This document shows, piece by piece, positions 2,909-47,249 of a stretch of DNA of 56,021 bases. The stretch spans positions 1 through 56,021 of IMG/VR virus record IMGVR_UViG_3300041583_000090; one strand, 5' to 3'. Under the pieces are notes generated by a model. That model worked only from the letters and a program-made list of their open reading frames with translations. It searched no databases and was not told the origin of the DNA. The DNA comes from a virus. Lineage: Duplodnaviria > Caudoviricetes. Within the stretch, counting starts at the first letter, position 1; every line of letters starts with the position of its first letter. Made by a program: the position numbers and the translations under genes.

Positions 2909-4539
2909 TGTCTGAAGAATATTTTATTAACGGAGCTCGACTTGACGAAGATAATGGGCCTGACGATACCTTTAAGAACCAAGATCCTTTCAATAGGTCA
3001 TGGGATGATCTTAAGGATCTGTCTGGATTAGAGAAGAACTTTAAGCGCAGATCAGAAAGAGCTGTAAAGCTATACGACTCGGTTCAGGCTAACCCCGATG
3101 TGGACTTAATGTCTCAGGGATACCTGGACTCCGCCTCTGCTACTAGCACAGGTAAAGAGGGGGTAAAGTCAAAGCAGATCAATTCAGGAGCGGTATACCG
3201 AAATGGATACGGACTCTTTGATGTAATCACCCCACCATGGAACTTATACGAACTAGCTAATTACTATGACACATCTTTTGCAAACCACGCCGCTATTGAT
3301 GCGAAGGTTCAAAACATTGTTGGTCTAGGTTATGACTTTAAGATTTCAGAAAGGACTCAGCTAAAGCTAGAATCAAGCCTCGATGAGGGGCAAAGAGACA
3401 GAGCCCGCAATCGAATTCAAAAAATGATGATTGAAATGAGAGACTGGGTAGAGACTCTTAACGATGACGATTCTTTGACTAACACTCTTAGTAAATTTTT
3501 TACAGATGTCCAGGCAACCGGGAACGGATACCTAGAAATTGGAAGAACTACCAAAGGTGAGATCGGCTATGTAGGTCACATTCCGGCCACTACCATGAGA
3601 GCTAGAAGGCTTCGTGACGGTTACGTCCAGATTATTGGTCAAAAGGTCGTATACTTTAGAAACTTTGGGGCAACCAACCTGAACCCTATTACAGGAGACC
3701 CTCGTCCAAACGAGATACTTCACTACAAAGAATACTCACCCCTTAACACCTTTTATGGAATTCCAGACATTATGGCAGCTATATCTTCTTTGCATGGAGA
3801 TCAGCTAGCCACTCAGTACAACATTGACTACTTTGGAAACAAGGGGGTACCTCGTTACATTATAACTCTTAAAGGTGCAAAGCTATCCTCTGAGGCAGAA
3901 GATAAAATGTTTAGATTCCTACAGACAAGCCTCAAAGGGCAGTCTCATAGAACTCTTTACATTCCCCTACCAGGAGACTCTGACAACAGCAAGGTAGAGT
4001 TCAAGATGGAGCCAATTGAAACCGGGGTTCAAGAAGCATCGTTTAACGAATACAGAATTCGCAATAGAGAAGACATCCTTGTAGCCCATCAGGTTCCACT
4101 ATCCAAGATTGGTGGAGGAGACAGCGCATCTATTGCAGCAGCTCTGTCACAAGACAGGACCTTCAAAGAGCAGGTAGCAAGGCCAGCTCAGCGCAATCTA
4201 GAGAAGATGCTTAATAAAATTATTAGAGAAAAGACAGATGTATTAGAGCTTAAGTTTAATGAGCTCACCCTTACGGACGAGATTTCTCAATCACAGATCT
4301 TAGAACGTTACGTAAAGATGCAGATTCTTACTCCTAACGAAGCTAGAGAGCAGTTGGGGCTTCCCCAGAGGCCAGACGGTGATGAAGTATTTGAGATGTC
4401 TCCACGTCAAGCAACAGATACCCGCGCTAACACAGCGGGGAATAGAGCAAGAGACGCAGAAAGAACCAATAACAATTCAGATAGTCCATCGACAGTATCT
4501 GGAAGGAACGCACAAGGAGAAGGTGCGGCATCATCATAA
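2908..4539 (+). CDS. Portal protein
   Basis: 543 aa; 'TGNGYLEI', 'YGIPDI', 'ILVAHQVP', 'LTPNEAREQLGLP' are typical HK97/PBSX-type portal motifs; precedes protease and capsid. Confidence 0.92.
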   Translation: MSEEYFINGARLDEDNGPDDTFKNQDPFNRSWDDLKDLSGLEKNFKRRSERAVKLYDSVQANPDVDLMSQGYLDSASATSTGKEGVKSKQINSGAVYRNGYGLFDVITPPWNLYELANYYDTSFANHAAIDAKVQNIVGLGYDFKISERTQLKLESSLDEGQRDRARNRIQKMMIEMRDWVETLNDDDSLTNTLSKFFTDVQATGNGYLEIGRTTKGEIGYVGHIPATTMRARRLRDGYVQIIGQKVVYFRNFGATNLNPITGDPRPNEILHYKEYSPLNTFYGIPDIMAAISSLHGDQLATQYNIDYFGNKGVPRYIITLKGAKLSSEAEDKMFRFLQTSLKGQSHRTLYIPLPGDSDNSKVEFKMEPIETGVQEASFNEYRIRNREDILVAHQVPLSKIGGGDSASIAAALSQDRTFKEQVARPAQRNLEKMLNKIIREKTDVLELKFNELTLTDEISQSQILERYVKMQILTPNEAREQLGLPQRPDGDEVFEMSPRQATDTRANTAGNRARDAERTNNNSDSPSTVSGRNAQGEGAASS

Positions 4540-11058: not shown

Positions 11059-11094
11059 TCCCCTCTAGATTGAGTTCTAGGGGGGATTCTTTTT
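11059..11094 (+). terminator. Intrinsic terminator after tail tube gene
   Basis: TCCCCTCTAGA-TTGAGT-TCTAGGGGGGA followed by TTCTTTTT. Confidence 0.85.
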
Positions 11095-11108
11095 GGTATA
11101 CTTATAGT

Positions 11109-11804
11109 ATGGCAACTAAAATATATGAGTATGGTTACATACATCTTGTTGACGGAACATCCGTATATATTGCCCCACTTAAAATAAAATATTTAAGAGA
11201 GTTCATGGACGCTTTCGAAAACGTCAAAGCATCAGCAACAGAAGAAGAGTCTACAACACACCTACTAGAGTGCGTAAGGATATCCATGCAGCAGTACTAT
11301 CCACAAATAGAAACCATATTTGATGTAGAAGACAGCATGGATATCAAGACCCTATACAGAATACTGGATCTGGCGGCGGGCATAAAGATTTCTAATAAAA
11401 AGAGTGAAGAGGACAAGGAGCTGCCAGAAAAAGCCAAGGAAGCTTCTGAAGACTCTTCTTGGGAAAAGCTAGATTTAGCAACCCTAGAGTCTGAGGTTTT
11501 TCAGCTGGGCATCTGGAAAGACTATGAAGACCTGGAGAGATACATGTCATTGCCAGAACTTATGGCAACCCTAAATTCTAAGAGAGAGTCTGACTATGCA
11601 GAAAAGAAGTTCTTAGCTGCCATACAGGGGGTCGACCTAGAAAAGAATTCTGGCAAAAGTAATGAGTGGGAGGAAATGAAGGCTAGGGTATTTAGCAAAG
11701 GTCAGGCTTCAAACGCAAACGACATTACCGCACTGCAGGGCGCTAACGCTCAAAAGGCAGGCTTCGGTATTGGAATGGGCATGAGTTACCAAAAAATAGA
11801 GTAG
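11109..11804 (+). CDS. Tail assembly chaperone, long (GT-like) form
   Basis: Between tail tube and TMP; ATG 11109 lies 6 nt after TGGTATACT; N-terminal ~100 aa similar to the next gene. Confidence 0.7.
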   Translation: MATKIYEYGYIHLVDGTSVYIAPLKIKYLREFMDAFENVKASATEEESTTHLLECVRISMQQYYPQIETIFDVEDSMDIKTLYRILDLAAGIKISNKKSEEDKELPEKAKEASEDSSWEKLDLATLESEVFQLGIWKDYEDLERYMSLPELMATLNSKRESDYAEKKFLAAIQGVDLEKNSGKSNEWEEMKARVFSKGQASNANDITALQGANAQKAGFGIGMGMSYQKIE

Positions 11805-11856: not shown

Positions 11857-12177
11857 ATGGCTACGACCATAAACGAGACAAAAGAAATCACACTTATAGA
11901 CGGAACAAAGATTTCGGTTAGGCCACTAAAGATTTCACTACTTAGAAACTTTATGAAAAAGTTTGAGGGAATCTCCAAGGTTGCAGATGACAATGACAAG
12001 TCTATGGATATTCTTATGGAGTGTGTGCAGATTGCCATGGAACAGTACAAGCCAGAGCTAGCTGTGGATATAAAGGCTCTTGAGGATGTGTTAGACTTGC
12101 CTACAGTTTACAAGATTGTAGAAGAAGCATCCGGAATCGCTATCGGTGATTCTCTTGCAGGCAACCTTAGTCGCTAA
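11857..12177 (+). CDS. Tail assembly chaperone, short (G-like) form
   Basis: 106 aa, SD AGGAGG, own TGGTATAAT near 11810; paralogous to N-terminus of previous gene. Confidence 0.7.
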   Translation: MATTINETKEITLIDGTKISVRPLKISLLRNFMKKFEGISKVADDNDKSMDILMECVQIAMEQYKPELAVDIKALEDVLDLPTVYKIVEEASGIAIGDSLAGNLSR

Positions 12178-12207: not shown

Positions 12208-15200
12208 ATGGCTGATATTAACCCCAATATCGAAATCAATATTGACACGTCCAGTGCGATGGCGTCGATTAAGGCTCTTCAGAGTCAGATATCAGTCTTT
12301 CACCAGTCTCTTCGTGCATCTGGAGATGCATCCAGTATTCAAAAGTCAAACAACTATTCTAAAAACCTTGTAAACTCTATCAATGCCACAGGCAAGTTTT
12401 CTGCCTCTCTTGCAACGGTAGCAAAAGATACAAACACTTTCTCTAATGCATTAGAGCGCAACAAGCTTTCCATGGCAGAAACCTTTAAGTATGGAGCAGC
12501 ATCAAGCGGTAAGTTTGGAAGACTCTTTAAGACAGAGTTTGCCACCATTGAAAAGGTTACAAGGGAAAGAGTAAAGACTCTTCAGACGCAATTCGTAAAA
12601 CTAGGCTCTGACGCTAACGGAGCCATTGAAACAATCAAGGTTAGACCTCTTCGACTTGACATGGATAGTCTAGCAACTCAGACTGCGATTAACTCTCAAA
12701 AGCAACAAATCTTTAACAAGTTACTTAAGCAGGGTTCTACAAATCTTCTAAACTTTGGTAAGAACACACAGTGGGCTGGTAGGCAGCTTATGGTTGGTTT
12801 CACATTACCTCTGGCAGTGTTTGGGACTGTAGCAGGAAAAACTTTCATGGAGATGGAAGAAGCCGTAATCAAGTTTAGGCGTGTTTACGGAGAGCTCAGC
12901 ACTACTGTTTCCGAGACAGACAGCATGGTCAACTCGATTGAGCAGCTGGCAAAAAGCTTTACCAAATATGGAATAGCTATAAAAGATACCATGAACCTAG
13001 CCGCCGACGCAGCGGCCATGGGAAAGATGGGGGCGGACTTAACAGCTCAGGTAGCGGAAGCTACAAGGCTAGCAGTTCTTGGTGGAGTTGACCAGGCTAA
13101 GGCTCTAGAGACCACAATCTCTTTGACGAATGCTTTGGGTGTTTCTACAGAAGACTTGGCCAGCAAGATAGACTTCCTGAACGCTGTAGAGAACCAGACG
13201 GTTACTGCCATTGAAGACCTTACAATAGCTATTCCGAAAGCTGGACCGATCATTCAGCAATTGGGTGGCAGCGTAGAAGATCTAGCCTTCTTCCTAACAG
13301 CCATGAAAGAGGGTGGAATTAACGCCTCTGAAGGAGCTAACGCTCTAAAGTCTGGTCTAGCGTCTTTGATTAACCCCGCAGGTAAAGCTGTAGAAATGCT
13401 TCAAGGCTTCGGTATTAATGTTAATGCCATTGTAGAGGGAAATGCAGGTAACGTCAAGAACACCGTAATAGAGTTTGCTCAAGCCCTAGATACGTTGGAT
13501 CCACTAAACAGAGCAAGAGCTATCGAACAAATGTTCGGTAAGTTTCAGTTTGCCCGTATCTCAACCTTATTCAAAAACGTTGTTGACGAGGGTACTCAGG
13601 CAGGAAGAGTCTTACAGCTAACAAGAGCGACTACAGAAGAGTTAGCGATCCTGTCTCAACGAGAGCTGCAGCGCGTAGAAGACTCCCCTGGATACAAGTT
13701 TAAAAAGCAGATAGAGGACATTAAAAATGAGCTAGTTCCTCTGGGACGAGAGTTTCTGAAGCTAATAACCCCAATTATTGAATTTGCAAGTGGCCTTCTT
13801 AAGCAATTCAATAGCATGGACCAGGGAGTAAAAACCTTTGTTATGGGGCTCATAGGAGTCTTAGGACTCATAGCTCCTACTGTAATCATGTCGATCGGTC
13901 TTTTAGCTAACGGCTTTGCAAATATTATCAAGGGCTTCGGTATGGTCAATACCCTATTTGGCAGGATAGCAGGAGTATCAACCAGCGCAGCTGGAGCCAT
14001 GAACTACTTTACCCAAGAGCAATTGGAAGCCGCCGCCGTGGGAGCTTCCCTTGGTCAGATTCACTCTAACCTGGTTCAGGTGTTCTCTCTTGAGAAGGGC
14101 GCAGTAAATGCCTTGGCCGTAGCTTACAGACAAGCCGCAGCAGCAGCAGGAATTTTTGCATCTGTCCCAATGGTTCCTAGAGTATCTTCTCCTATCATTA
14201 CAAAATCTTCAACAGGAAGAAGAGCTTCTTCCCCAGGAGGGGTTCTGCCTCCGACCATACCGGGATATGCCAAGGGAATCTTAAGTCTACCTGGCCGAAA
14301 GGGTGCTGGAGATATTCTTCCAGCAATGCTAGCTCCGGGCGAAGCGGTCATTCCTGCGAAACAGTCTCAGAAGTATTCTGCGTTCCTACAAGCCATCATG
14401 AACGATGAGGTCCCAGGTTTTGCTAAGGGCGTCATGCTCGGGATGCCAGGATCTGGAAAATCCACTTCAAAAAATAGGGATGCTGGACAGCAAGTTTATG
14501 AGAGTTTCCTCCAGAGCAGCTACAGAAACGTTCCTCCAACAAACTATGGCCACCAGCTTTCACCAACATCTGGACACAGCTTTCCTATCTTTGGTCTTGG
14601 CGGAGTGTACATGGCTCCAGACGGGAAAAAAGTTTTCGTAAAGCCAGTAGTAGACGAAAACTCGGCAAACGCAGAGATGCGAGGAACACAGATTGCAAGA
14701 CAGGTTCACGGACTAAAAGCTCCAGAACAAAAAATTACTGTCATCGCTGACCCTAATGACCCAACCAGAACAAGAAGATTCTTGGCCCTAGAATCTAAAC
14801 TTGACTCAACCTTTATAAACAATGACCCCATGGCTTTGTTCAACGAGCCTCAATACTTTCAGCAACTAGTTGCATCTCTTTTGCGTGTAGACAAAGACCT
14901 TTCAGCAGGAAATGTGTTCGGCAACACCGTGGCTGATGTTGGTCCAGCTGGGGTTTTCAAGAGGGCATCGGGAATAAGAGCCTTCGAACCTAACCTTCCA
15001 TCAATGGAAGAGCAAGCTACAATAAACCTTCTAGGAATTAAAGGTGGAGCAAAGCGGGCATTTGCAGAGTCAACACTAGGCCTGATGGCAGGGATGACTC
15101 CACAACAGTATCACCAAAAGATGATTACTGAAATACAGCAAGTTCTTCCACTGCTAAAGAAAACTGTTGCTGGATTTGGATTAACGAATCCTCAAGAAGC

Positions 15201-18200
15201 AGACAGCTATCAGAATATGATCAAGAGACTTGAGTCTGGCTTGGGAGTAAACTGGTCAAGGTTCCATACCATGCACTCTGCTGTAAAAGTAGCCAAGCCA
15301 AGGCAGTCTACGAAACCAATTCCAGGCTTTGCAGACGGAGTCTTAAGTGTTCCAGGACCAAAGGGAGCAGGAGATGTTATTCCTGCAATGCTTTCTCCTG
15401 GAGAAGCTGTAATCCCTGCAGATAAGGCAAAGAAGTATCGTGGTTTTATAAGCTCTCTAATCGCCGGAAACGTTCCTGGATTTGAGCTAGGTACAGGAAA
15501 TGTGGGCGGAGCACCACAAAGGCTCAACGAAATCATGAGCTTCGTAGATCCAAGAAGAAGGTCTGCTACCGCAAGCTCGGGAATAATAGACCAGGCTGGA
15601 GGGAACTCTAAGGCTTTGGCTTCAGATCTTGCAGAGGCTGGAGTTTCTGCTAAAAACGCTATGAAGATTCTTTCCGAAGCAGCTGACAAGGCAAAGATGG
15701 GACTAGAGGAATTTAACTCTTACGTCTCCCTTGTCAAGAAATCTACCGCAGACGCTCCGAAAAACAAGCAGGGGCTCGTTCAGAATAGTCAGAAGCTGGT
15801 ATCGGACGTCCGGTCTAATTCTGGATTTAACCCAAAGAACCAGGGGGGCTCCTTTACTCATGTTGGTTCTGGAACTGAGCTCTCAGCCGGAGAAATCCTA
15901 AAAAGATCTGGTTCTGGCGACCTAAAACTTTCCCCAGGCCAAGCCAAGAACATTCAGTCTATGGACCCATCAAAGTTGGTTGGGGTCAAGTCCGGACTGG
16001 GGCTGTCCAATTTTGATCAAGAGACTAATAGGCAGCTTGACAAAGGCGGAGCAGATGTTAGCAGATTCTCCGAGGCCTTTGACGAGGCAGGATTAGAAAA
16101 ATGGAATGATTCAATAAGGTTTGGCGGGGGTAAGGTTGAAGACCTGGCTGGCCAAGCTCAGACATTGGACCAAGAATTTAGGAAACTAATATCGTCTTTG
16201 CCAGAGGGAACAAAAGTTTTCGATACAGATTCAAAGAGGCAGGACTATGAATCTGCTACAGGTAAAACGGGTGCCAGCGTTGAAAGCATGTATGGCACTG
16301 CGAGAGGCCAAGCTAAGGCTAAGGGTGCATCCAATCTGGCAGGAGTTATGGACACAGCACAGGCAACGCCAACAGAAATTCGTGACACGGGAACAAGTCC
16401 TGGTAAAAAACGTAGGGCACTCGGTCCAAAGATGGCAGAGTTACAGGTAACCCCAGCAAAAGATTCTATCAGTGATACTTCCATGTACACAGACAAAACA
16501 ATATCCGAAATGGAAGCTAGGGGGCAAGACCTTTACACTTTAGCAAGAGACAGGAATAGCCCACACAGACAAGCGGGCCCTGACGGGGAAGATGATGCCA
16601 AAGCTTATAACAAAGGATTTAACTCCAGCTCAGCTAAGGGACGATCCACTCCTCCTCCAATTCCTGAGGCTTCCGAAAAGCTAAAACAGTCTTCGACATT
16701 ACCAGACTCATTCCACGCCGCAATGGGTGCTTCACAATTTGAGCCTCCTAAAGAAGCTAAGAAAGAAATCAAGAGTGCCATCGGCGGAATGTTTAGAGAG
16801 ATGTCAGGCTCCGTAAAGAACCAGGCAAAGACTAAAGCTAAAGAGCTTGGCGAAAAAATGATCATGCCATTCGCTAAGCATCTTGCAAAGGGCACAGGCA
16901 ATATTCTTGTTAGCGAATATCAAAAAGAAAACGTTAACTACGACTCCGACACGGGGGTTACTACAAGTCAAGAGACAGGTCAAGTCCTATCTGACGAAGC
17001 TGGCTTTGACGCAGCTAACATAGCTACAGATGAACAGGGAAATCCTATCCTGACTCAAAATGGAGACCCTATGACCAGAGAGGCCTATGGCAAGGGTATA
17101 AAGAAACAAGCTTCGGCAATGAAGCGCCAAAGAATGGCAGGGAAAGCTTTTGGAGCCCTCTCAGTGGCCACTATGGGTGCTGGCATGATGTCTGGCCAAG
17201 AGGGTCCTGTAGGAGATGTCGCAAGGCAGGTTATGCCAATACTAGGTGCCTTGGCTATGATTGGTCCAATGCTTCTTGCACTAGCAGCACCTATCGCAAT
17301 ACTCGTGGGTGTTGTAGGTCTGGTTGCCTTTGGTCTGTTCAAGTATAACCAAGAACTTAATAAAGTCAGAAAAGAGTCTAGAGAGCTTGGGGAGTCCCTA
17401 GCTTCTGGCTCCAAGGCTATGGATAGGTTTGCACAATTTGCGGGAACTGTTTCTCCTACAGAGATAATGAACCAGAGAAGAGCTGGTTTAGGAACTCAAG
17501 TAACCGAGGTCCTAGGTAAAAGCGAATTTGCATCTAACTTTATAGCTAGCGACCAGGGTAAAGAGCTTGTTAAAACCGTAGAAGACGGATTAAAGACTTT
17601 GGGCAGATCAGATACAATGTCTAGAGTCTCTAATCAGTTAGCGATGGCTGTTGCCACGGGGATTCTAACTCAAGAGCAGGCCTCGAACATAGCCCTAGAG
17701 CTTGGAAGAACCCTAGAAGACTTTAGCTTTACCATGGGCGTAGTCGGAGAGCTTCAAGATCTTTTGGGTCCGAACGGAGAAAAGCTTCTAGACGGAGAAC
17801 CCATAGATTTGTTTATCTCAATGTCAAAGAGCAGCGCAAAGTCTTTTTCCAATACAGTAAAGGGGGCCCTAGAAAGTCTAAGCTCTGACGAAGGCTGGAT
17901 GAGCGCATTTGGCTTCGGAGAAGAGGCCAAGATTTCGTTTACGGCTGGTGCCATCACTGGTTTCTTTGAAGAGCAGCAAATGCAGCTGGACGGACTGGCA
18001 GTTGCTCAGCAAAAGTCAATAGACAAGATCCTGGAAGAGGCAAGAGCCCTAGAAGCTTCGGGTAAAGTCCAACAGGCTAATGCAAAATTTGCAGAAGCAG
18101 AGCTTTTGAGAGACAGTCAGCTTTCCGACAGAGTCTTAATGCAAAAAGAATATAGCTCTGCTCTAGAGGAAACCCTTGGCCTTCTGGATGCTGGCGACAG

Positions 18201-21200
18201 CAAATACGCCAATATGAGCGTTGCTCAGATTCAAGAAGATATACTTAGCCAAGACAGATTTGGAACTGTTTCTCCGGAAGATGCCCTAGGGCGTGCTGAA
18301 AGAATATTCGAGAACGATGGAGCAATCCTTGGAGACATAGACAAATACGCCCAAAGAACATTAGAGTCTATGACACAAGGCATTAAGGATAGGTTTGCAG
18401 AGGCTGACGAGTTCACAAAGAAAATGATAACCGGTGCTCTGAGCTCAATATCTTCTGGATCTGGACTTACCGTAAGGGCAAAGTTGTTGCTAACTTCTGC
18501 AATTGGATCTGGTGCCTTAGAACCAAAACAAATCGCAATGCTCGTAGACATGTTTGACCCAGATGTAGAAGAAGACGCAAAGCAATTAGAGATTATTGCA
18601 AACGTTGGCCTGTCTCTAGGTCAAGGCGGCATGCAACAAGCAGTCGTCGCAATCGACAGTCTCGTAAAGGACATCGTAAATGAAGCAGAAAGAAAGAAAA
18701 AAGCAGTAGACTTATTAAGCTTTATTGATCTGCAAGTAAAAAAGAGCCCAACAATGGCAAATCAAATTCTTGATTTGGTTTCAATGCTTGGCACTTACTC
18801 TGACCAGGTTGGTGGAGAAAATGTCATAGACTATATCGTTAAGCTAGACGAGAAGTCAATGAAAACCATGATGTCGAAACTGTCAAAGATGCAAAGACTT
18901 GTCGACAGAGCAACAGATCCAATAACAGTTGAGACACTAATTGAGCAAAAGGTAATCACAGACAAGTCAGCAATTGCTGCCTTTAAGGGTGATCAAGAGT
19001 ACTTCCAGCAGCTAGATCCCGTAAGTCAATTCCTTTACGTTCAAACTTTTCTTGCCGTGATTGGGACCATTACCGACGCCGAAGCCATTGCAAGTCTAAA
19101 AACAAAAGGAGTCGCCCAAGAGGGCGAATCTAGAACTATCTCTGGCCCTAAAGGTCGAGGATCAAGGACCCTGGCAAGTTATTCTCAACAACAGATAGAT
19201 GACTCAAGGGCTTCGATCGGCGCCGGAATTGCAGAAAGTGTGACAGATATCGTTGGTTCCTTTACCGGCGACAAAGGCACTAAAGAAGGAGCTGGCGGAG
19301 GGGGGTCTAAGTCGGACCCATTCGAAAACATTCTTAATAGATTAAAGCAAGTTCGAGATGCATCTATCAATGCAGCCGGAGGTGTTAAGGAGCTCATGAA
19401 ATTCCTTGGCGGCAAAAAGAGTATAACAATCTTTGACGGCATGGATCAGCAGATGCTTCTTAAGGGATACAACTCAGAATTCAGAAGCTTTGTAACTAGT
19501 CTCGATGAGGCAGCCAGAGGAGAGTTTGCTACATTCGAAAAAGGAGTCCTTAAAGTAACAGCAGCTGGAAAGGCAATGAATAAAGCCTTCTCAGAAGCAA
19601 CTCTCGGAGACTACCAGATTAGCCTGTCCCAGGGGCTTGCGGATGTAAACATGCAAATCAGGGCCATGACAAAGCTTACAGAAGCTGGAATGTCAAACAA
19701 AGATGCCTTCGAAGTTCTTGCAGATGCAAACTTAGCGTATGCTATTTCTATGGCGGCCACTACAGAAGAGGTTCAGAAGCTAATTAAAGATTTTAATGCT
19801 CTAACAACCGCAAAGAAAAAGCTTGCTAACTCAACAGTTGAGGGCATGGAAGCCGAAGTGTCCGAAGCCTTCTCTAAGATAAATGAGTTTTTCTCTGCTA
19901 AGGAGCAAGCGGTAACGCTCAAGTTTGAGGCAGATACTAAGTCTTTGACAAACGTTACAGACGGAGTCATTGCTCTTGCTCAAAAAGAGATTCAGGACTA
20001 CCAGTACACTATTGACGACCTTAGCTACGAGCTAGATCTTTTGGTGGAAAAAGAAACAGAGATTAACGACAAATACGATAAAAGAATTAATGCTTTAGAA
20101 AAGGTCCAGGAGATAAACCAATCCATCCTCGACCAGCAGAGTAGCCAGCTGAGTGTTGCGGAAGCTCTTTCCTCAGGAGACATAGCAGCAGCCGCTCGAG
20201 CAGTTCGGGAGCTTAGGTCCAAGCAAGCCTCTTCCAGAAAAGAATCATTCTCTAAAGACCTAGACCTCTCTCGTGAAAGGGAACTCGAGTCTCTTAGATC
20301 AACCAGCGGTAAGTCTAGGATTCAGCTTGAAAGAGAAATGAAGGACATCCAGGCACAGATTGCAATAATTGAGGAAACTCGATTAGAACCAGCTCAGAAG
20401 CTCCTGTCAAGTCTTGAAAGGGCCAGAGACGTAGCCTTGGAGGCTATTGGAGAGAATGGATACCTAGGAAAGACTAAAGCCGAGTGGGCTTTGGTTGAAA
20501 ACGGAGTAAGGCTTGCCAAGGTTGAGGCCGAGGGCTATAAAAAAGCTATCCTTGACGCACTAGACTTAATGGAAAAACTAAGGCTTGGGTACGCTGAAGG
20601 CACCAAAAAGGAAGAGTCTCCAGAATCTGGTTTACCAAAAGTAAAGACATCAGTATTCCAGGCCTCGCCCGTAAGCGTAGATCGCCCGACAGCAGAAAAG
20701 GCTGTCGCCTCCGCCATAAAATCTGGATCAGCCTCAGACCCCCTAAACTTTGCCAATCAAATTAAGAGTGCCGTTTTAGATAACCGCGCCGAGGCGGTTG
20801 CAATACGACAGGGAGTTGCTGCAGGAACAGCAACAGCTGCACAGAAGGCTACGCTAAAACAACTAGAAAAAACCAACATAGGCCTTATGACAAAATCTGG
20901 ATTAAAGTTTGCCAAGGGTGGGTTAGTTCCTAAATACTTTATGTCTGGTGGAACAGTCAAAGGCTACGCCTTCGGAGGTCTGGCTAGGGGAACAGACACC
21001 GTGCCAGCAATGCTAACCCCCGGAGAATTTGTTGTAAAGAGGAGTGCTGTAAATAGTTACGGGGTAGACAAGCTAAAGGCTATTAATAATGGACAAGCAC
21101 AAAGTCCTAATTCAGTGTATAATTATAGTCTAACAGTTAATACACAGAACGGCTCCAACCCTGATGATATAGCTAGAACAGTTATTTCAAGCCTAAAGAG

Positions 21201-21237
21201 GGTGGAGTCTCAAAGAATTAGGAGTAGTCGGTACTAA
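12208..21237 (+). CDS. Tape measure protein with inserted cargo domains
   Basis: 3009 aa after tail chaperones; TP901-type core ('GINASEGANALKSGL', 'AIEQMFGK'), hydrophobic segments, C-terminal 'FAKGG...GTDTVPAMLTPGEFVV'. Confidence 0.93.
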   Translation: MADINPNIEINIDTSSAMASIKALQSQISVFHQSLRASGDASSIQKSNNYSKNLVNSINATGKFSASLATVAKDTNTFSNALERNKLSMAETFKYGAASSGKFGRLFKTEFATIEKVTRERVKTLQTQFVKLGSDANGAIETIKVRPLRLDMDSLATQTAINSQKQQIFNKLLKQGSTNLLNFGKNTQWAGRQLMVGFTLPLAVFGTVAGKTFMEMEEAVIKFRRVYGELSTTVSETDSMVNSIEQLAKSFTKYGIAIKDTMNLAADAAAMGKMGADLTAQVAEATRLAVLGGVDQAKALETTISLTNALGVSTEDLASKIDFLNAVENQTVTAIEDLTIAIPKAGPIIQQLGGSVEDLAFFLTAMKEGGINASEGANALKSGLASLINPAGKAVEMLQGFGINVNAIVEGNAGNVKNTVIEFAQALDTLDPLNRARAIEQMFGKFQFARISTLFKNVVDEGTQAGRVLQLTRATTEELAILSQRELQRVEDSPGYKFKKQIEDIKNELVPLGREFLKLITPIIEFASGLLKQFNSMDQGVKTFVMGLIGVLGLIAPTVIMSIGLLANGFANIIKGFGMVNTLFGRIAGVSTSAAGAMNYFTQEQLEAAAVGASLGQIHSNLVQVFSLEKGAVNALAVAYRQAAAAAGIFASVPMVPRVSSPIITKSSTGRRASSPGGVLPPTIPGYAKGILSLPGRKGAGDILPAMLAPGEAVIPAKQSQKYSAFLQAIMNDEVPGFAKGVMLGMPGSGKSTSKNRDAGQQVYESFLQSSYRNVPPTNYGHQLSPTSGHSFPIFGLGGVYMAPDGKKVFVKPVVDENSANAEMRGTQIARQVHGLKAPEQKITVIADPNDPTRTRRFLALESKLDSTFINNDPMALFNEPQYFQQLVASLLRVDKDLSAGNVFGNTVADVGPAGVFKRASGIRAFEPNLPSMEEQATINLLGIKGGAKRAFAESTLGLMAGMTPQQYHQKMITEIQQVLPLLKKTVAGFGLTNPQEADSYQNMIKRLESGLGVNWSRFHTMHSAVKVAKPRQSTKPIPGFADGVLSVPGPKGAGDVIPAMLSPGEAVIPADKAKKYRGFISSLIAGNVPGFELGTGNVGGAPQRLNEIMSFVDPRRRSATASSGIIDQAGGNSKALASDLAEAGVSAKNAMKILSEAADKAKMGLEEFNSYVSLVKKSTADAPKNKQGLVQNSQKLVSDVRSNSGFNPKNQGGSFTHVGSGTELSAGEILKRSGSGDLKLSPGQAKNIQSMDPSKLVGVKSGLGLSNFDQETNRQLDKGGADVSRFSEAFDEAGLEKWNDSIRFGGGKVEDLAGQAQTLDQEFRKLISSLPEGTKVFDTDSKRQDYESATGKTGASVESMYGTARGQAKAKGASNLAGVMDTAQATPTEIRDTGTSPGKKRRALGPKMAELQVTPAKDSISDTSMYTDKTISEMEARGQDLYTLARDRNSPHRQAGPDGEDDAKAYNKGFNSSSAKGRSTPPPIPEASEKLKQSSTLPDSFHAAMGASQFEPPKEAKKEIKSAIGGMFREMSGSVKNQAKTKAKELGEKMIMPFAKHLAKGTGNILVSEYQKENVNYDSDTGVTTSQETGQVLSDEAGFDAANIATDEQGNPILTQNGDPMTREAYGKGIKKQASAMKRQRMAGKAFGALSVATMGAGMMSGQEGPVGDVARQVMPILGALAMIGPMLLALAAPIAILVGVVGLVAFGLFKYNQELNKVRKESRELGESLASGSKAMDRFAQFAGTVSPTEIMNQRRAGLGTQVTEVLGKSEFASNFIASDQGKELVKTVEDGLKTLGRSDTMSRVSNQLAMAVATGILTQEQASNIALELGRTLEDFSFTMGVVGELQDLLGPNGEKLLDGEPIDLFISMSKSSAKSFSNTVKGALESLSSDEGWMSAFGFGEEAKISFTAGAITGFFEEQQMQLDGLAVAQQKSIDKILEEARALEASGKVQQANAKFAEAELLRDSQLSDRVLMQKEYSSALEETLGLLDAGDSKYANMSVAQIQEDILSQDRFGTVSPEDALGRAERIFENDGAILGDIDKYAQRTLESMTQGIKDRFAEADEFTKKMITGALSSISSGSGLTVRAKLLLTSAIGSGALEPKQIAMLVDMFDPDVEEDAKQLEIIANVGLSLGQGGMQQAVVAIDSLVKDIVNEAERKKKAVDLLSFIDLQVKKSPTMANQILDLVSMLGTYSDQVGGENVIDYIVKLDEKSMKTMMSKLSKMQRLVDRATDPITVETLIEQKVITDKSAIAAFKGDQEYFQQLDPVSQFLYVQTFLAVIGTITDAEAIASLKTKGVAQEGESRTISGPKGRGSRTLASYSQQQIDDSRASIGAGIAESVTDIVGSFTGDKGTKEGAGGGGSKSDPFENILNRLKQVRDASINAAGGVKELMKFLGGKKSITIFDGMDQQMLLKGYNSEFRSFVTSLDEAARGEFATFEKGVLKVTAAGKAMNKAFSEATLGDYQISLSQGLADVNMQIRAMTKLTEAGMSNKDAFEVLADANLAYAISMAATTEEVQKLIKDFNALTTAKKKLANSTVEGMEAEVSEAFSKINEFFSAKEQAVTLKFEADTKSLTNVTDGVIALAQKEIQDYQYTIDDLSYELDLLVEKETEINDKYDKRINALEKVQEINQSILDQQSSQLSVAEALSSGDIAAAARAVRELRSKQASSRKESFSKDLDLSRERELESLRSTSGKSRIQLEREMKDIQAQIAIIEETRLEPAQKLLSSLERARDVALEAIGENGYLGKTKAEWALVENGVRLAKVEAEGYKKAILDALDLMEKLRLGYAEGTKKEESPESGLPKVKTSVFQASPVSVDRPTAEKAVASAIKSGSASDPLNFANQIKSAVLDNRAEAVAIRQGVAAGTATAAQKATLKQLEKTNIGLMTKSGLKFAKGGLVPKYFMSGGTVKGYAFGGLARGTDTVPAMLTPGEFVVKRSAVNSYGVDKLKAINNGQAQSPNSVYNYSLTVNTQNGSNPDDIARTVISSLKRVESQRIRSSRY
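14260..14430 (+). repeat. TMP internal ~57-aa repeat, copy 1
   Basis: PGYAKGILSLPGRKGAGDILPAMLAPGEAVIPAKQSQKYSAFLQAIMNDEVPGFAKG. Confidence 0.9.
15322..15492 (+). repeat. TMP internal ~57-aa repeat, copy 2
   Basis: PGFADGVLSVPGPKGAGDVIPAMLSPGEAVIPADKAKKYRGFISSLIAGNVPGFELG. Confidence 0.9.
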
Positions 21238-21863
21238 TGGCAACCTCAGCTTACATGAGCAACAGAAGTAAGTACGGCCGACCACAGGCCATGCTCTGGG
21301 CAGAGAACCCTGGAAGAATAGAGGCAGGGGCCTACATACCTAACGGATACGAGGTGGGGTATGACAACGAAGAAATCTCAGACCTTACCCAGTTAAACCA
21401 GTTTTTAATCTTGTCGGACCACAATCGGTCATCCCTCGAGTTTAGCATAGATAGAATAGAGCAAAGAGAGAGAATGGTTAACGGCAGAATGAGGTCATAC
21501 CATATTGCTGATAAACTGCAGGCTTCTTTATCCTGGAGCATGTTACCTTCTAGGTCTTTTAGGGACTCCCCCTCATTCTCAGAAACAGGAATTGCAAATT
21601 ACTCTACCGATGATCGTTACACTATAGACGGTGGTGCGGGAGGAGTTAGCTTGCTCTCCTGGTATGAGTCACACCCCGGACCTTTCTGGGTTTATTTGGC
21701 ATACGACAAGTTCAACAAAGATGGAGTTGAAGATTACTCCAAGTTGGCAGAGTATAACCAGGTTGTTGAGATGTACATCTCAGATTTTTCGTATAGCGTA
21801 GTAAAGCGAGGAACGAGCAATCACGATTTCTGGGATATTTCGGTATCTCTAGAAGAGGTATAA
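21237..21863 (+). CDS. Putative distal tail protein
   Basis: 208 aa directly after TMP; 'ERMVNGRMRSY', 'LSWSMLP', 'WDISVSLEEV'. Confidence 0.65.
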   Translation: MATSAYMSNRSKYGRPQAMLWAENPGRIEAGAYIPNGYEVGYDNEEISDLTQLNQFLILSDHNRSSLEFSIDRIEQRERMVNGRMRSYHIADKLQASLSWSMLPSRSFRDSPSFSETGIANYSTDDRYTIDGGAGGVSLLSWYESHPGPFWVYLAYDKFNKDGVEDYSKLAEYNQVVEMYISDFSYSVVKRGTSNHDFWDISVSLEEV

Positions 21864-24800
21864 TGTTTTTAAACGATGAACTAAATAATCACCTCTTAAC
21901 CTCTCCAACAGTAAAGAGCAACTCTAAGATAATTGTAGAGTGGAACCTTAATGCACACGACAACATATCCAAGATCGGGAACTACCGCTATCGACCACTG
22001 GAGGGGCCATCATCAGAGTTAGGGTACCTTCCTTCCTTCTTTGACGCAAACGATGAAGGTGGTTTTTACACGGGGGCAACAGGCTCGGATGTAGTTCTTG
22101 ACGGAGGCATCGATGAAGATGGAACGCCTCTCTTGCTACAGCAGCCCAAGCAGAAAGAAAAGCTTCTCTATTCTTTAGAGGACTGCTTTGCAAGGTTTAG
22201 GCCAAGGTCTGGAATCAACAAGGTTCGTTTTGGAATTACAGAGTTTGTTCATAATGCAAATCCTGATATGGCCAGAAGGCCAAGGTACTATATGTCACAC
22301 AAGGATGATAAGTTTAAGTACTGGTCGTCTTATCGTATAGAGAATGACGTAGAGTATGGAATAGCTAACGCGTCTCCACTTGGGATTAATCATATTAATG
22401 ACGCTGCACCTTTTGTTATTTACGAAGAGCCTGTAGCCACGAATAAGATAGTGGTAAAGGTTCAGACTAACGTAGGAACCATAAAGTCAGAGAGAGTGCT
22501 TAATATTTCTGGCGAAACTGGTGACCCACTCTTTGGAGATGAGAATAAAACTACTCCTTCAGACTGGGGAATAGATGTCTTGGTCAATGATCAATGGCAG
22601 AACGTGATTAACTTTTTCCCAGAAAGCACTAGAGCAGACGGCTCCCCCGTTATGGGACCAGATGGTTACCTAGAGATCTCGTACGGTCTGATCATACCCA
22701 AAAGGTACCAAGAAACTTTTAATTTTAACTATGTGTTATCCTCTTACACGGGCTTACCTAGCTCAGGCTTTGAGGGCGAGGCTTTTCTGGTCAAGGAGTC
22801 AGACTTAGATAAAGGGCTTTATTATATTTGGATAAACAATGGGTACGAGCAGTTTACCCCAGAGTACGGGTGGAAGCTTTCTGAACAGGAGGCTTCTCCA
22901 CAGTCAGAGTTTATTTCAAATATAGGCAATCCCGATTCGTTTGCTGTTCCGAATGAAACCTCTTTACAATTCAGAGAGTTTCAGTATATCTCTGGAATAA
23001 GACTTGCGGTCAGGAGAATGAACAAATTTAATTCGGTACTAGATCTAATAGAGATCTCTCCTAGGTTATGTGTAGACATAACAGATATAACAAATAGTTA
23101 CAGCGTATCAAAGATAGCGTCTGACTTGGGTAACACGGGGCTTCCCGTAGGACAGTTGCTCGCCTCCGTAGGCTCCTTAGAACTCTTTGACCCAGAGCAA
23201 GCTTTTAATAAAAGTAACGAGAAAGCTATCGTCCCCTTTAGCTCAATAAAGAACATGCAAGTAAGGATATATGATGTTATCTCTTATCAGCAAGACCTTT
23301 CTTCTAACCGTAAAAACATTTTTTATGTACCAATAAAAACAATGTACGCAGATTCATTCCCTGAAATATCTTCGGACACAAGGTCAGTATCTTTAGCTCT
23401 TAGAGATTTATACTTTTATTTCGAGTCTCTTCCAGCACCAGATATACTGCTTACCAATATATCCCTGTCCTCAGCAGTCTCAACACTGCTAGATTACATA
23501 GGGTTCTCTAACTATGTATTCAAAAGGTTGCCACAGGAAAGCGAAGATGTTATACCCTTTTTCTACTGTAAGTCAGACAAGACTGTTGCAGAGGTTCTCC
23601 AAGATCTAGCTGTCTCAACTCAAAGCGCGATGTTCTTTGACGAGAGCAACAACTTTATTGTGATGAGTAAAAACTATATGATACCATCATCTGCAGAGAG
23701 GCCTACGGATATGACCCTTCTAGGGGCAGAGGTCTCAGATCAGACAGAGGAAGAGATTCAAGAAGCAGCTGATTTTGGCATAGTTACTCCAGCTAATTTG
23801 CCTAACATTATTTCTATTTCATCTCAGAACGACTCTATTTTTAATGATGGAAAGATAGCTTATAAATCCCTGTATATTCAAAAGAGCCAGGCCAACTCCT
23901 CCCAATCATACAAGCTAGACTCTAGTAAGAGTTGGGTATACAAGCCGGTTCTTCTTTGGGAGGCAGCGGGGGAAGAGGCCTCGAAAGCCCGGAACGAGCA
24001 GATATCTACACAAAATGCATATAGCCTGACAGCAATACCTCTAAAATCAGATTTATCAAACTCTGTACCGCATGTAAGAAATGGAGTAGTGGTTTCTAAT
24101 ATCCTAGACCTAGGAGAAGCTGTTTACTGGCTTGGCCGTTACAACGGATACTTCTACGCCGCAGGAGAAATCATAAGGTTTGACGCTGTAGAATACAGTA
24201 TACCTAACATATCAGAATCAATCTGGCTAACAAGCATAGATGACTACCAGAACTATTTTTCTAAAATATCTTTTGGCGGCAAGATGTACCCCACTGGCAG
24301 GGTACGAATTTTTTCAGAGCCGAACTACAAAAACATTAATGACAGTTTGGTCTTGGTTGAGGGTGCTGTTTCCAAGCATGGTCGCGGCCAATTCGGCACT
24401 GCGATTACCAGCCATTATGCTGGGATAGATCTTTCTTGGACGGATGGATCTAGAATCAATGGTATCGGGATGAATTCTAAGTTCTTATTTGACAGTAGCG
24501 GGGAATCGGAAATAGAGTCTGCAGAAAGCCTCCCGCCAGACATAAGAGCAGTCTACAACAACATCCTAATCGCTAAGTCAGACATCAAGCAGCTCTATGA
24601 GAACATTAGCTCTTTGATCATAGGCGAACTTAGCACACCTATTGGGGGGGTGAACCAAGCTGTTTTGAGTCTACGTTCCCAGATTAATATAAAAGAAATT
24701 TTTGTAAAGTCCAAGATGTTAGAGTTAAAGTCATATATTGAAACATCTTCAAAGTACCCCAGCTCTTCCTCAGCTCTGTCTCAGGCTAGACGTACCCAAG

Positions 24801-26455
24801 TTACTGGCAAGATTAAAAACTTTATGGCATACTCTCATTCTTCAGAGAATCCAGAAAGCTCTTCCCTGTCAACAGATACCGAGATGGTTCAGGCTTCTGC
24901 TCTGATCATGGATGGGGCTAGTTCAACCGACCCCAACTACTCTGCCATAAATCACATAACCTATGCCTTTTCATCCCAAACAACAATTCCTGGACCTGGC
25001 ATATCTGCTATCAGAGACACCCTTCACACTCATTTTGGAACTAGAATGAGGATTATCGGTAGGGTGTCAGCTTCAAGCGAATCTGCTCAAGAAGCTAGCG
25101 GGGCAATGACATATGTCACGGTAGAGACGACATCTCCCGAGGATAAGGCAACCATAACAGGAGGCAGCGGAGGAATAGCTGGATTGCTTAACAGCAAAAC
25201 AGGAGAGGGGTATTATTTTGAGATAGCGGCGTTAGACTCTCTTAATATAGACAAGTACTCTGCTTCAAATATGTTTTTCTACAAAATTATTTCGAGTGGC
25301 TCAGACCAAGAGTCATCATCATTGCCTCAGCTTTTGTGGAAAGGTGTTTCAGATATTCTAGTAGACGGTGGAGATTTTGCTGGACAAAGCAGAGTCTTTG
25401 CACAAGAAAATCAAACAGTGTATGATCTTGCTTTCGAGTACGTTGAAAATATCGATGGAACTAGGACGTTCTTCCTTTATTTAAATGGAACACAGATAGC
25501 AACAGTTGTTGACACATCTCCAATTGTTGCTGGAAACTCCTCAGCATTGTTTATTCGGGGAACCTCGAAATGTATGTTTGAGAATATTTACAGCATGTCA
25601 AATAACTACGCGGACAGCCCATCATCAAAGCTGGATCCAGTAGTTAGTTCTGCCTTCGGCGTCGAGGACTTGACGATAAACTCCTCGTTTTCAAAGTATG
25701 CCATAAGCGGACTTGTCCAATCGACATACTTATCATCAATTGGTCCATCTAATGTTCCGAAGTATAACATATACTATGACGAGTTTGGAACTATAATGAG
25801 AGAGGCCGCTTACCTGAACGTCAAGTATGACAAAGCCTTCCCAGCTCTTTATTCTAGGATCATTCCATCTGCTAGCAAGATTCGAACATACTGCGTGTCA
25901 TCCTACTACGGAAGTCCCTATGGTGCAGAGTTCTTGGTCTTTAACGCTACTGATACAGTCATTAGCCTAGACTCAAGTACAAACTCAGCCCTTAGAATTC
26001 AGGGCATAGCCTTCACCCAAGAGTCTGGAAACGAGCTGACTGTTGACGACTTCTTTAATAAAAAGAGTGATCTTTCAAACCCTACAATAGAAGGCGGGGT
26101 AGTCGTTTCCTCACCATTATATTCTAAGGAAAAGTTCTTGAATATAAGGAACAGCAGATCTACATACGGAAGGCAAGAGTTTACCATAGACGCTCCGTAT
26201 ATACAAAGTAGAGACACTGCAAACTCTATGATGTCCTGGCTTGCCGATAAAGTTATGGTGCCAAGAAAGTCCTTGGGGCTAAGTGTATTCTCTATCCCAA
26301 CATTGCAGCTAGGAGACATCGTTAGTATAAACTATAGCTCAAATGAAATCGATCAGGTTGCAGAGAGTGACCGTTTTGTTGTTTACCAAATAGACTATGC
26401 CAGGTCTAGCGGATCTGTAGAAATGTCTGTATACTTAAGTGAGGTGAAGGCTTAA
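21863..26455 (+). CDS. Putative tail tip / baseplate hub protein
   Basis: 1530 aa; hub-like 'VAEVLQDLAVSTQSAMFFDE' and 'PTLQLGDIVSINY'. Confidence 0.7.
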   Translation: MFLNDELNNHLLTSPTVKSNSKIIVEWNLNAHDNISKIGNYRYRPLEGPSSELGYLPSFFDANDEGGFYTGATGSDVVLDGGIDEDGTPLLLQQPKQKEKLLYSLEDCFARFRPRSGINKVRFGITEFVHNANPDMARRPRYYMSHKDDKFKYWSSYRIENDVEYGIANASPLGINHINDAAPFVIYEEPVATNKIVVKVQTNVGTIKSERVLNISGETGDPLFGDENKTTPSDWGIDVLVNDQWQNVINFFPESTRADGSPVMGPDGYLEISYGLIIPKRYQETFNFNYVLSSYTGLPSSGFEGEAFLVKESDLDKGLYYIWINNGYEQFTPEYGWKLSEQEASPQSEFISNIGNPDSFAVPNETSLQFREFQYISGIRLAVRRMNKFNSVLDLIEISPRLCVDITDITNSYSVSKIASDLGNTGLPVGQLLASVGSLELFDPEQAFNKSNEKAIVPFSSIKNMQVRIYDVISYQQDLSSNRKNIFYVPIKTMYADSFPEISSDTRSVSLALRDLYFYFESLPAPDILLTNISLSSAVSTLLDYIGFSNYVFKRLPQESEDVIPFFYCKSDKTVAEVLQDLAVSTQSAMFFDESNNFIVMSKNYMIPSSAERPTDMTLLGAEVSDQTEEEIQEAADFGIVTPANLPNIISISSQNDSIFNDGKIAYKSLYIQKSQANSSQSYKLDSSKSWVYKPVLLWEAAGEEASKARNEQISTQNAYSLTAIPLKSDLSNSVPHVRNGVVVSNILDLGEAVYWLGRYNGYFYAAGEIIRFDAVEYSIPNISESIWLTSIDDYQNYFSKISFGGKMYPTGRVRIFSEPNYKNINDSLVLVEGAVSKHGRGQFGTAITSHYAGIDLSWTDGSRINGIGMNSKFLFDSSGESEIESAESLPPDIRAVYNNILIAKSDIKQLYENISSLIIGELSTPIGGVNQAVLSLRSQINIKEIFVKSKMLELKSYIETSSKYPSSSSALSQARRTQVTGKIKNFMAYSHSSENPESSSLSTDTEMVQASALIMDGASSTDPNYSAINHITYAFSSQTTIPGPGISAIRDTLHTHFGTRMRIIGRVSASSESAQEASGAMTYVTVETTSPEDKATITGGSGGIAGLLNSKTGEGYYFEIAALDSLNIDKYSASNMFFYKIISSGSDQESSSLPQLLWKGVSDILVDGGDFAGQSRVFAQENQTVYDLAFEYVENIDGTRTFFLYLNGTQIATVVDTSPIVAGNSSALFIRGTSKCMFENIYSMSNNYADSPSSKLDPVVSSAFGVEDLTINSSFSKYAISGLVQSTYLSSIGPSNVPKYNIYYDEFGTIMREAAYLNVKYDKAFPALYSRIIPSASKIRTYCVSSYYGSPYGAEFLVFNATDTVISLDSSTNSALRIQGIAFTQESGNELTVDDFFNKKSDLSNPTIEGGVVVSSPLYSKEKFLNIRNSRSTYGRQEFTIDAPYIQSRDTANSMMSWLADKVMVPRKSLGLSVFSIPTLQLGDIVSINYSSNEIDQVAESDRFVVYQIDYARSSGSVEMSVYLSEVKA

Positions 26456-29898: not shown

Positions 29899-30206
29899 TG
29901 GCAGATCGCAAGGAAAGGTTTTCCTTGCTCAGCCGATACGGCAAGTATCATACTGCACGGTATGAGCAGAGACCTCAAATCAATTTAAACGTAGAGCAAT
30001 GGGCAGCAGACGCTCTAATAGAGTCTTATACCTTAGAGTATTGTTACGACCTGCTACAATACTATTTCGAAGTAGCCCAAAATCCAACATGGAAATATTT
30101 TGCTAACTACGCACATGACATTATTTCTAAGCGTGACATGTACAAGCAAGATTTATCCGAGAGACAGCAGCGAAGAGCTGCAGCAAAGAAGTGGTTGAGT
30201 GAGTAA
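29898..30206 (+). CDS. Hypothetical protein, possible helicase-associated factor
   Basis: Coupled between small gene and helicase; function by position only. Confidence 0.6.
   Translation: MADRKERFSLLSRYGKYHTARYEQRPQINLNVEQWAADALIESYTLEYCYDLLQYYFEVAQNPTWKYFANYAHDIISKRDMYKQDLSERQQRRAAAKKWLSE

Positions 30207-44145: not shown

Positions 44146-47248
<3,103 letters not shown>

Positions 47249-47249
<1 letters not shown>

Follow-up and report, generated by a model that had tools for sequence, protein, structure and literature searches.

Hydrolases embedded in tape measure proteins (TMPs), the fusion of a TMP with an RNA polymerase (RNAP) in phage P23-45 and the polyvalent proteins of phages are already part of the literature (PMC1796659, PMC10770324, PMC5512222). 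The TMP described here is encoded on a 56,021-nucleotide (nt) stretch of viral DNA (Caudoviricetes; IMG/VR record IMGVR_UViG_3300041583_000090), which we call the window. It comprises 3009 amino acids (aa) and contains three copies of a module of ~60 aa, two of which flank a kinase-like domain, hereafter K.

Like the window protein, TM4 gp17 (Piuri and Hatfull 2006, PMC1796659) and Douge gp16 harbour an enzyme domain inside the TMP, and in Douge gp16 this domain is bracketed by two clear copies of the module. Unlike in the window, the cargo of these phages acts on peptidoglycan and forms one cassette, in a chain of 1699 aa in the case of Douge gp16. A bracketing repeat is not mentioned for either TMP in the accessible text of PMC1796659 and PMC13033339. 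As for gp96 of the Thermus phage P23-45, it is also a giant TMP (5,002 aa) with an enzyme that is needed on the cytoplasmic side after ejection, but that enzyme is an N-terminal, two-barrel virion RNAP; neither a repeated joint nor cassette exchange is described for it in the accessible portions of PMC10770324.

Two model TMPs are processed. In lambda gpH, one module-like stretch, which may correspond to the module of the window TMP, lies shortly before the hub-bound C-terminus, just after a Gly-rich region in which cleavage is placed (PMC12617516). Lambda gpH has a single copy and no embedded enzyme, is 853 aa long and shows weak similarity to the module profile. In T5 pb2, cleavage parts a hydrophobic stretch from the C-terminal enzyme motif and the hub-bound end (PMC10038345). 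Unlike the window TMP, pb2 has no detectable module, only the residues AEGG after the cut.

Several unrelated conflict-type domains, among them kinases, share one virion-associated chain in the polyvalent proteins of phages and conjugative elements (Iyer et al. 2017, PMC5512222) and in MuF-type polymorphic virion proteins, with which the window TMP may be compared; the authors of the former suggest recombinational variability. The carriers there are head or ejection proteins, unlike the TMP, and the term 'tape measure' occurs 0 times in the main text of that paper. The kinase clade described there is devoid of a C-lobe, whereas K has a helical C-terminal half. Furthermore, K is the only enzyme-like domain of the window TMP, although a phosphatase domain of the HAD-IIIB type accompanies K in two relatives, L051 and L065. 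Compared with polymorphic toxin systems, the variable segments of the TMP are internal rather than at the C-terminal tip. In full-text searches that covered main texts, few of them from subscription journals, we came across neither a repeated TMP joint around exchangeable cassettes nor a kinase-like TMP domain; searching with module motif strings returned irrelevant matches only.

The open reading frame (ORF) at 12208-21237 is a siphophage TMP of the TP901 type by family-profile membership. It matches PF10145 (aa 247-444, E 8.6e-22, 78.4 bits against a curated cut-off of 33.2) and TIGR01760, tape_meas_TP901 (aa 211-555, E 8e-26, 90.9 bits against a cut-off of 28.8), and PHROG TMP families match aa ~8-653. 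Its parts are as follows.

12208..21237, plus strand: TMP gene P0001, from the ORF list; 3009 aa
12838..13872, plus strand: conserved TP901-type TMP core, aa 211-555 (PF10145, TIGR01760)
13825..13920, plus strand: hydrophobic stretch 1, aa 540-571 (Kyte-Doolittle maximum 2.36 over 19 aa)
14248..14436, plus strand: module copy A, aa 681-743 (74 bits with the module profile; ends PGYAKG and PGFAKG)
14437..15309, plus strand: kinase-like domain K, aa 744-1034 (from predicted fold and motifs; 290 aa, between copies A and B)
15310..15498, plus strand: module copy B, aa 1035-1097 (82 bits; ends PGFADG and PGFELG)
15499..16407, plus strand: mobile cargo segment X, aa 1098-1400, without assignable fold
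16408..17226, plus strand: hypervariable stretch, aa 1401-1673 (aa 1401-1650 alignable in 3-20 of 225 homologues)
17227..17349, plus strand: hydrophobic stretch 2, aa 1674-1714 (Kyte-Doolittle maximum 2.71)
17350..20907, plus strand: long proline-poor region, aa 1715-2900 (1.4% proline), the presumed ruler part
20908..21135, plus strand: module copy C, of the C-terminal type, aa 2901-2976 (61 bits)
21136..21234, plus strand: last 33 aa, presumably the hub-anchoring C-terminus by comparison with solved tails

The two hydrophobic stretches are the only parts of the protein with a Kyte-Doolittle mean of at least 1.6 over 19 aa, and both internal module copies and both cargo regions sit between them. 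An earlier reading of the letters and translations of the window, hereafter the sequence-only reading, had already placed the cargo there; this holds, but the start that it gave for the second stretch (~17149-17340) is ~80 nt too early relative to 17227-17349. Its estimate of the tail length that 3009 residues at ~0.15 nm each would imply, ~450 nm, is plain arithmetic (451 nm). Within the proline-poor region, aa 2450-2750 are conserved in ~110-170 of 225 homologues, and a mini-joint, GYAEG, is found at aa 2794-2798 (nt 20587-20601). The presumed anchoring role of the C-terminus stems from the tails of JBD30, T5 and Douge, in which the resolved part of the TMP is confined to its last 33-42 residues, located within the hub (PMC11445458, PMC10038345, PMC13033339). 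In most relatives of the window TMP, the distance from the end of the last module to the C-terminus is 31-35 aa.

The module starts with [FY]AxG(G), followed by a beta-hairpin core, D..PA.L.PGE.V, and a short helix, and ends with PG[FY]xxG. A hidden Markov model (HMM) built from the family, the three window copies included, was run on the six-frame translation of the whole window and gave exactly three matches, all in the TMP ORF, the next best having an independent E-value (i-E) of 5.1. A motif scan located PA[ML]L.PGE at aa 705, 1059 and 2933 and PG[YF]..G at aa 685, 736, 1039 and 1090 (nt 14260, 14413, 15322 and 15475). As self-BLASTP of the whole protein gave the identity match only, the repeats were compared pairwise: copies 1 and 2 share 34 of 59 residues (E 8e-25), and copies 1 and 3 share 24 of 67 (E 9e-7). 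All three approaches thus bear out the three motif copies that the sequence-only reading had listed, as well as their positions. It had also noted that a different segment follows each internal copy, and the two segments indeed show no relationship by BLASTP (best E 1.1). The internal copies represent a sequence type of their own, distinct from the C-terminal type. The short motif [FY]A.G occurs seven times in the TMP, for 1.7 occurrences expected, a number reached in 0 of 500 shuffles.

One proposal of the sequence-only reading, that the repeats serve as recombination anchors, must be abandoned at the DNA level. Over 19 genes, the proportion of identical codons among identical amino acids is 0.537 for module A, 0.533 for module B and 0.543 for K; the three copies share only a 24-nt stretch at 79-83% DNA identity, and no long DNA repeat was found between the module copies in the TMP gene. 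Since there is neither excess synonymous conservation nor more than 24 nt of shared DNA, the module appears to be kept for a peptide function. By these codon comparisons, it is conserved at the protein level only and is not a DNA recombination signal.

The module is not confined to this family. A tblastn search of 50,697 cultured-phage records with one 68-aa copy identified 1352 places in 1248 records, mostly one place per record, in agreement with the sequence-only reading, which describes the motif as known from the C-terminal regions of TMPs in one copy. The hosts concerned are mainly Mycobacterium (440), Gordonia (315), Pseudomonas (166) and Vibrio (93), and among the 60 matches listed, nearly all fall under annotated TMP genes. 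Judging from these matches, the module is a widespread, general TMP element, usually present in one copy shortly before the hub-anchoring C-terminus. A profile of 28 module copies run against the sequences of PDB chains matched Douge gp16 (1699 aa) twice, at aa 963-1013 and 1409-1472 (E 1.6e-21), and JBD30 gp46 (1158 aa) once, at aa 1016-1054 (E 4.9e-4). Because only the last 33-42 residues are resolved in the Douge and JBD30 tails, in the accessible descriptions of these structures, the module has no solved structure. With the module profile, the Douge TMP (locus L076, 774-5873) displays two nearly identical copies, at aa 954-1026 and 1407-1474, and an NlpC/P60 domain lies between them (aa 1295-1331, 26.7 bits, above the Pfam cut-off). 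Modules that bracket an enzyme are therefore also present in a phage that is in culture and only distantly related. In the Halo TMP (1337 aa), a single module was seen, at aa 858-937, but no enzyme family, which makes this TMP uninformative on the adjacency of modules and enzymes. In lambda gpH, we saw by eye a module-like pattern at aa ~728-785 of 853, FATGG ... PAGIVHRGEFVF ... GYATGG, with GEFVF in its core; the match to the module profile is weak (hmmsearch i-E 0.003, 4.4 bits; hhalign E 0.014, probability 3.2%). No module was detected in T5 pb2 (locus L078; best i-E 0.25-0.5, hhalign E 0.24). The residues that follow its R1127 cut (aa 1127-1131), AEGG, resemble a module start, but the motif A.GG occurs twice in pb2 for 0.6 expected, which 77 of 500 shuffles also reach, so that chance suffices to explain it.

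K, the segment between copies A and B, was modelled with AlphaFold2 (AF2) from a 49-row alignment, with a predicted local distance difference test score (pLDDT) of 87.6 and a predicted template modelling score (pTM) of 0.86. The order of strands and helices fits beta1-3, alphaC, beta4-5, alphaE and the catalytic loop of kinases, and the C-terminal half is helical. A G-x-G-G-V-Y loop is present at aa 796-801 and a lysine in V-F-V-K812; the putative catalytic loop reads D895-K-D897-L-S-A-G-N902 and is followed by D910-V-G912. The catalytic roles of these residues were assigned from where they fall along the predicted strands and helices rather than by superposition. D895, D897, N902, D910 and G912 are invariant in the 49 sequences, down to 39% identity, and conservation in this set reaches at least 90% for K812, G798 and G799. 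In a Foldseek search of the PDB, all 48 matches listed are kinases or kinase-fold entries, the best one being Helicobacter pylori CtkA (E 4e-4, TM-score 0.35-0.39), and others haspin, Vps34, LepB, PI4KII-alpha and HipA. Among the predicted viral structures of BFVD, E-values go down to 8.7e-6 and query TM-scores up to 0.52; at the top are phage proteins of large size with the annotation ADP-ribosyltransferase, portal/head morphogenesis protein or PI3/4-kinase, which look like the polyvalent virion proteins of PMC5512222. The model of K thus has a bilobal kinase fold and the catalytic residue set, but no sequence profile assigns K to a curated kinase family. On the strength of the model, K is a kinase-like domain with an intact predicted catalytic set.

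K appears to be a TMP domain. A HMMER pass over 1.84 billion representatives yielded 166 proteins at E ≤ 1e-3; the 150 matches listed are all giant TMPs or truncated parts thereof, in which the domain is found at positions from 1 to 2862, and no cellular or stand-alone relative is among them. The short matches (144-863 aa) were considered as stand-alone kinases and rejected, because several of them begin inside a module; they look like cut TMP gene calls. In 192 of 198 full-length relatives, K is located between the hydrophobic stretches.

As for segment X, nothing relevant was found in Pfam at E ≤ 10 or by phmmer among PDB sequences, and the ESM Atlas gave unnamed viral clusters and one TMP cluster only, with recognition below the useful mark. 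No match was obtained in proteins shorter than 1654 aa with the word-indexed search. X is mobile: in the window (aa 1098-1392) it follows K, but it is homologous to a segment that precedes K in the relative P0007 (41% identity, E 2.8e-63). X homologues make up 27 rows, 13 after K and 14 before it, and in 27 of 27 rows X starts between -32 and +40 aa from a module end. The exchangeable unit therefore looks like a module plus the cargo behind it.

Relatives were gathered by a word-indexed search with aa 660-1110, in which 7986 candidates were scored and 1464 proteins obtained at E ≤ 1e-3; the best 120 of them are 63-100% identical to the window TMP over aa 660-1110 and 1769-4035 aa long. Relatives range in length from 2000 to 4468 aa. 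Module copies were counted in 256 non-identical TMPs of at least 2000 aa, taken from proteins and 75 viral loci.

1 module copy: 20 TMPs
2 module copies: 36 TMPs
3 module copies: 137 TMPs
4 module copies: 59 TMPs
5 module copies: 4 TMPs

In the best 120 proteins, the inter-module segments shorter than 1200 aa fall into 19 clusters, namely kinase-like (120 members), X-type (11 members) and 17 others, including 10 singletons. Most of these other clusters occupy the interval between an additional, penultimate module and the C-terminal one, which is where extra segments are most often found (47 TMPs). At the site between copies A and B, L013 has a different cargo of 253 aa and L014 one of 385 aa, and L016 and L017 have a single module and no cargo, their N-terminal 740-770 aa still being 56-64% identical to those of the window TMP. 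P0005 differs from P0011 by a ~940-aa insertion between two modules, each of which matches part of the single module of P0011, and P0008 displays a tandem duplication of the module alone. In the TMPs of L008-L012 (3625-3693 aa), K is found at aa 1310-1613 with 51% identity, in a different TMP backbone and next to no full modules; the short sequences GKFNYG before it and NGFNGGG after it are G[FY]xxG-like. Comparison of these alignments shows that relatives gain, lose, replace and reorder segments next to modules. Pfam searches of nine cargo segments from relatives gave no family for seven. Behind K and between the first two modules, the TMPs of L051 (9887-13888) and L065 (9920-15580) contain an acid phosphatase domain of HAD superfamily IIIB (PF03767; 59-60 bits, the cut-off being 27). 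As support, the sequence-only reading had asked for homologous TMPs that combine conserved flanks with variable numbers of repeats, each followed by an unrelated enzymatic domain. A conserved N-terminal flank, one to five module copies and unrelated segments adjoining them are what we found, and enzyme-type domains after repeats are represented by the kinase-fold K, the HAD phosphatase of relatives and NlpC/P60 in Douge.

Some of the positions at which similarity breaks lie at modules. Between ~180 and 220 of 225 homologues are alignable up to aa 1100; their number drops from 188 to 56 just after module B and then to 3 over aa 1100-1600, and rises again at aa 2450-2750 and 2900-3009. Counting high-scoring segment pairs (HSPs) of at least 80 aa, 379 of 963 boundaries lie within a module ±10 aa, for 8.7% expected. 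The nearest relative, L001, is 93.5% identical to the window over 14 kb, and the break that it exhibits after module B is unbiased. Over aa 451-1100 the two DNAs are ~99% identical, a 320-nt exact match ends at aa 1100, 3-5 codons past module B, and identity over aa 1101-1250 amounts to 69-77%. A second divergent tract (aa ~2790-2930) has its left edge at the GYAEG mini-motif and its right edge in the core of module C. L001 also has a long 70-85% identical tract at aa ~1850-2390, with no motif seen at its sharp right edge (aa ~2388), and patches rich in indels at aa ~1999-2045 and ~2295-2339. A RecA-like recombinase encoded by the phage (36671-37681, plus strand; PF00154, E 4.7e-30) may bear on TMP mosaicism.

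We lean towards the following explanation, which we hold to be somewhat likelier than its negation. The window protein is a giant TP901-type TMP built from module-headed units, its relatives exchange segments at such joints, and its kinase-like cargo would act in the host. Unit 1 consists of module A and K, unit 2 of module B, X, the hypervariable stretch, hydrophobic stretch 2 and the long ruler-like part, and unit 3 of module C and the 33-aa C-terminal anchor. The module would not itself attract recombination; presumably, recombinants with their seam in a module are retained because this joint is functional and tolerant in structure. At infection, the TMP would be expelled from the tail and insert through its two hydrophobic stretches, in keeping with the general model for TMPs (PMC11445458, PMC13033339), and the cargo between these stretches, including a putatively active, ATP-using kinase, would reach the host and act there. 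The tail thus probably carries ready-made enzymes into the host. Precedents for TMP-borne enzymes, proposed to act in the host, are the RNAP of P23-45 (PMC10770324), the muralytic motif of T5 pb2 (PMC10038345) and motif 3 of TM4 (PMC1796659), and kinase domains occur in phage polyvalent proteins (PMC5512222).

A number of observations weigh against this explanation. The kinase call for K comes from fold and motifs: TM-scores with PDB entries do not exceed 0.40, the best E-value being 4e-4; the K domain of the window has no Pfam match at E ≤ 10; no kinase family is found among the 22 families matched by any of the 49 K members at E ≤ 1; and a profile search of PDB sequences with K returned no kinase at E ≤ 10. 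In the monomer model of module-K-module (AF2), the modules form a small hairpin and two short helices with a pLDDT of 33-57, and the two modules show neither docking nor a confident fold; they may need partners to fold. A complex prediction with three module copies scored 0.04, a value obtained without controls that gives no indication either way on oligomerisation. As regards exchange at the joints, the HSP boundary count is inflated, because the proteins were gathered with aa 660-1110 or 742-1038 as queries and are mutually related, hence not independent. The edges of the long L001 tract, at ~aa 1850 and 2371-2390, are away from modules. Among seven near-identical gene pairs, three were identical or cut by contig ends, and in the small set of four usable pairs one of eight sharp identity breakpoints is at a module, or two of eight when an [FY]A.G mini-motif no more than 3 aa away is included. 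K is directly preceded by a module in 194 of 252 cases and directly followed by one in 135; it is flanked on both sides in 131 and on neither side in 54. From the breakpoint and flank counts, modules are frequent but not obligatory junctions. Fixed, colinear content between the repeats, which would have spoken against the sequence-only reading, was seen for the first interval alone, among close relatives (module-K-module, 131 of 252). As for delivery, the retention of the cargo in the virion, its exit through the tail and its arrival in the cytoplasm are predictions, and three copies of a folded 33-kDa domain would be hard to fit into a tail lumen of ~4 nm. HAD-IIIB enzymes are typically periplasmic, which would fit an action in the envelope rather than in the cytoplasm. 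All in all, the interpretation proposed in the sequence-only reading is partly supported; the cleavage or translocation signals and the cargo loop facing the cytoplasm that it also put forward are predictions.

Other explanations assign the modules a different part. It is conceivable, though we would not expect it, that the TMP is a polyprotein whose modules are proteolytic signals, with cuts at or just before [FY]AxG(G); this is compatible with the exchange of module-headed units. As in the conversion of lambda gpH to gpH* and gpHC or of T5 pb2 to pb2* and pb2C, processing would then free a ~39-kDa product made of the module and K, along with further fragments. Every unit of the window TMP does start with a module, and the excess of [FY]A.G described above would be in line with such signals. 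The module-like stretch of lambda gpH directly follows the glycine-rich region where cleavage is placed (PMC12617516), but this match is weak, and the exact cut site and the protease are given as unknown in the accessible text of that paper. T5 pb2 is cut after R1127, between its hydrophobic stretch and its enzyme motif (PMC10038345), but it has no module, and the AEGG that comes next is explainable by chance. TMP processing, even with the loss of internal segments, is called common in PMC1796659; no protease domain was found in the window TMP by scans with Pfam/TIGRFAM-type profiles. A broader proposal, which we regard as rather unlikely, is that siphophage TMPs are a general system of polyprotein delivery, the module being an ancient processing or hand-over signal shared with lambda gpH*/gpHC and the units being traded like cassettes. 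An enzyme behind any module would be kept in the tail and set free before the DNA, in the envelope or the cytoplasm of the host, the enzymes so far being the kinase-like domain, the HAD phosphatase and NlpC/P60.

If the middle domains instead served assembly, lumen packing or wall or receptor binding, K might be a pseudo-enzyme or a ligand-binding fold. K indeed has no sequence-level kinase membership and low TM-scores, and most cargo classes have no family (seven of nine segments from relatives). However, the candidate catalytic Asp and Asn and the Asp of D-x-G are invariant in the 49 sequences, and the beta3 Lys nearly so. Such invariance of catalytic residues is unusual for pseudokinases. 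The cargo of relatives also includes true enzyme families above Pfam cut-offs (HAD-IIIB with 59 bits, NlpC/P60 with 26.7 bits), and we consider a purely structural role quite improbable. We give even less credit to the idea that the internal modules are remnants of former C-termini, left by growth of the TMP through end-fusion and now tolerated as linkers. The usual place of the module near the C-terminus, the preference of extra segments for the interval between the penultimate and last copies, in 47 TMPs, and the low confidence of the modules in the monomer model would agree with it. In contrast, the internal copies are about as conserved as K (amino-acid identity of 0.70 and 0.76, respectively, over 19 genes) and form a type distinct from the C-terminal one, which indicates purifying selection on them. 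Tandem copies and reordered units also require more than serial end-fusion.

The surroundings of the gene resemble those expected in a siphophage tail region. Upstream are portal, head protease and capsid genes, then two adjacent ORFs that occupy the position expected for tail assembly chaperones, a role suggested by that position. Downstream is a 208-aa ORF that matches phrog_1194 only, and whose position would suit a distal-tail role, and then a minor tail protein.

11070-11804 and 11857-12177, plus strand: two adjacent ORFs directly before the TMP gene, phrog_10504 (function unknown), the first also matching phrog_10474
21863-26455, plus strand: minor tail protein of 1530 aa, phrog_10359 in four matched stretches, with no Pfam match at 1e-3

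Virtually all genes of the window are on the plus strand. A whole-gene megablast of the TMP gene and a tblastn search with aa 655-1711 against cultured phages gave no match. An 828-aa ORF (35-2521, plus strand) immediately precedes the portal region, in the position expected of a terminase; it has no PHROG match at 1e-5 and no Pfam match at 1e-3. The phage also encodes replication and nucleotide-metabolism enzymes (30199-31419, 33409-36684, 44135-47249 and 47249-48484, plus strand): a DnaB-like helicase, a DNA polymerase III alpha subunit (PHP, NTPase, finger and HhH), the large and small chains of a class I ribonucleotide reductase, and a serine hydroxymethyltransferase.

TMPs are usually seen as rulers and channel formers that carry at most a small wall-hydrolase motif. 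Our study describes a large environmental family, with at least 1464 proteins in the word-indexed search, that has a kinase-fold domain and many unrelated segments behind a joint, and this joint is also present in the cultured model phages Douge and JBD30 and possibly in lambda. It provides a testable handle on the old questions of the mechanism and purpose of TMP proteolysis, and of whether tail length truly corresponds to TMP length in chains that are partly globular. Should the cargo be delivered, the lumen of the tail would be a second route for pre-made effectors beside the capsid ejection proteins. The effector set would then be polymorphic and rapidly exchangeable, which would bear on host takeover and counter-defence.

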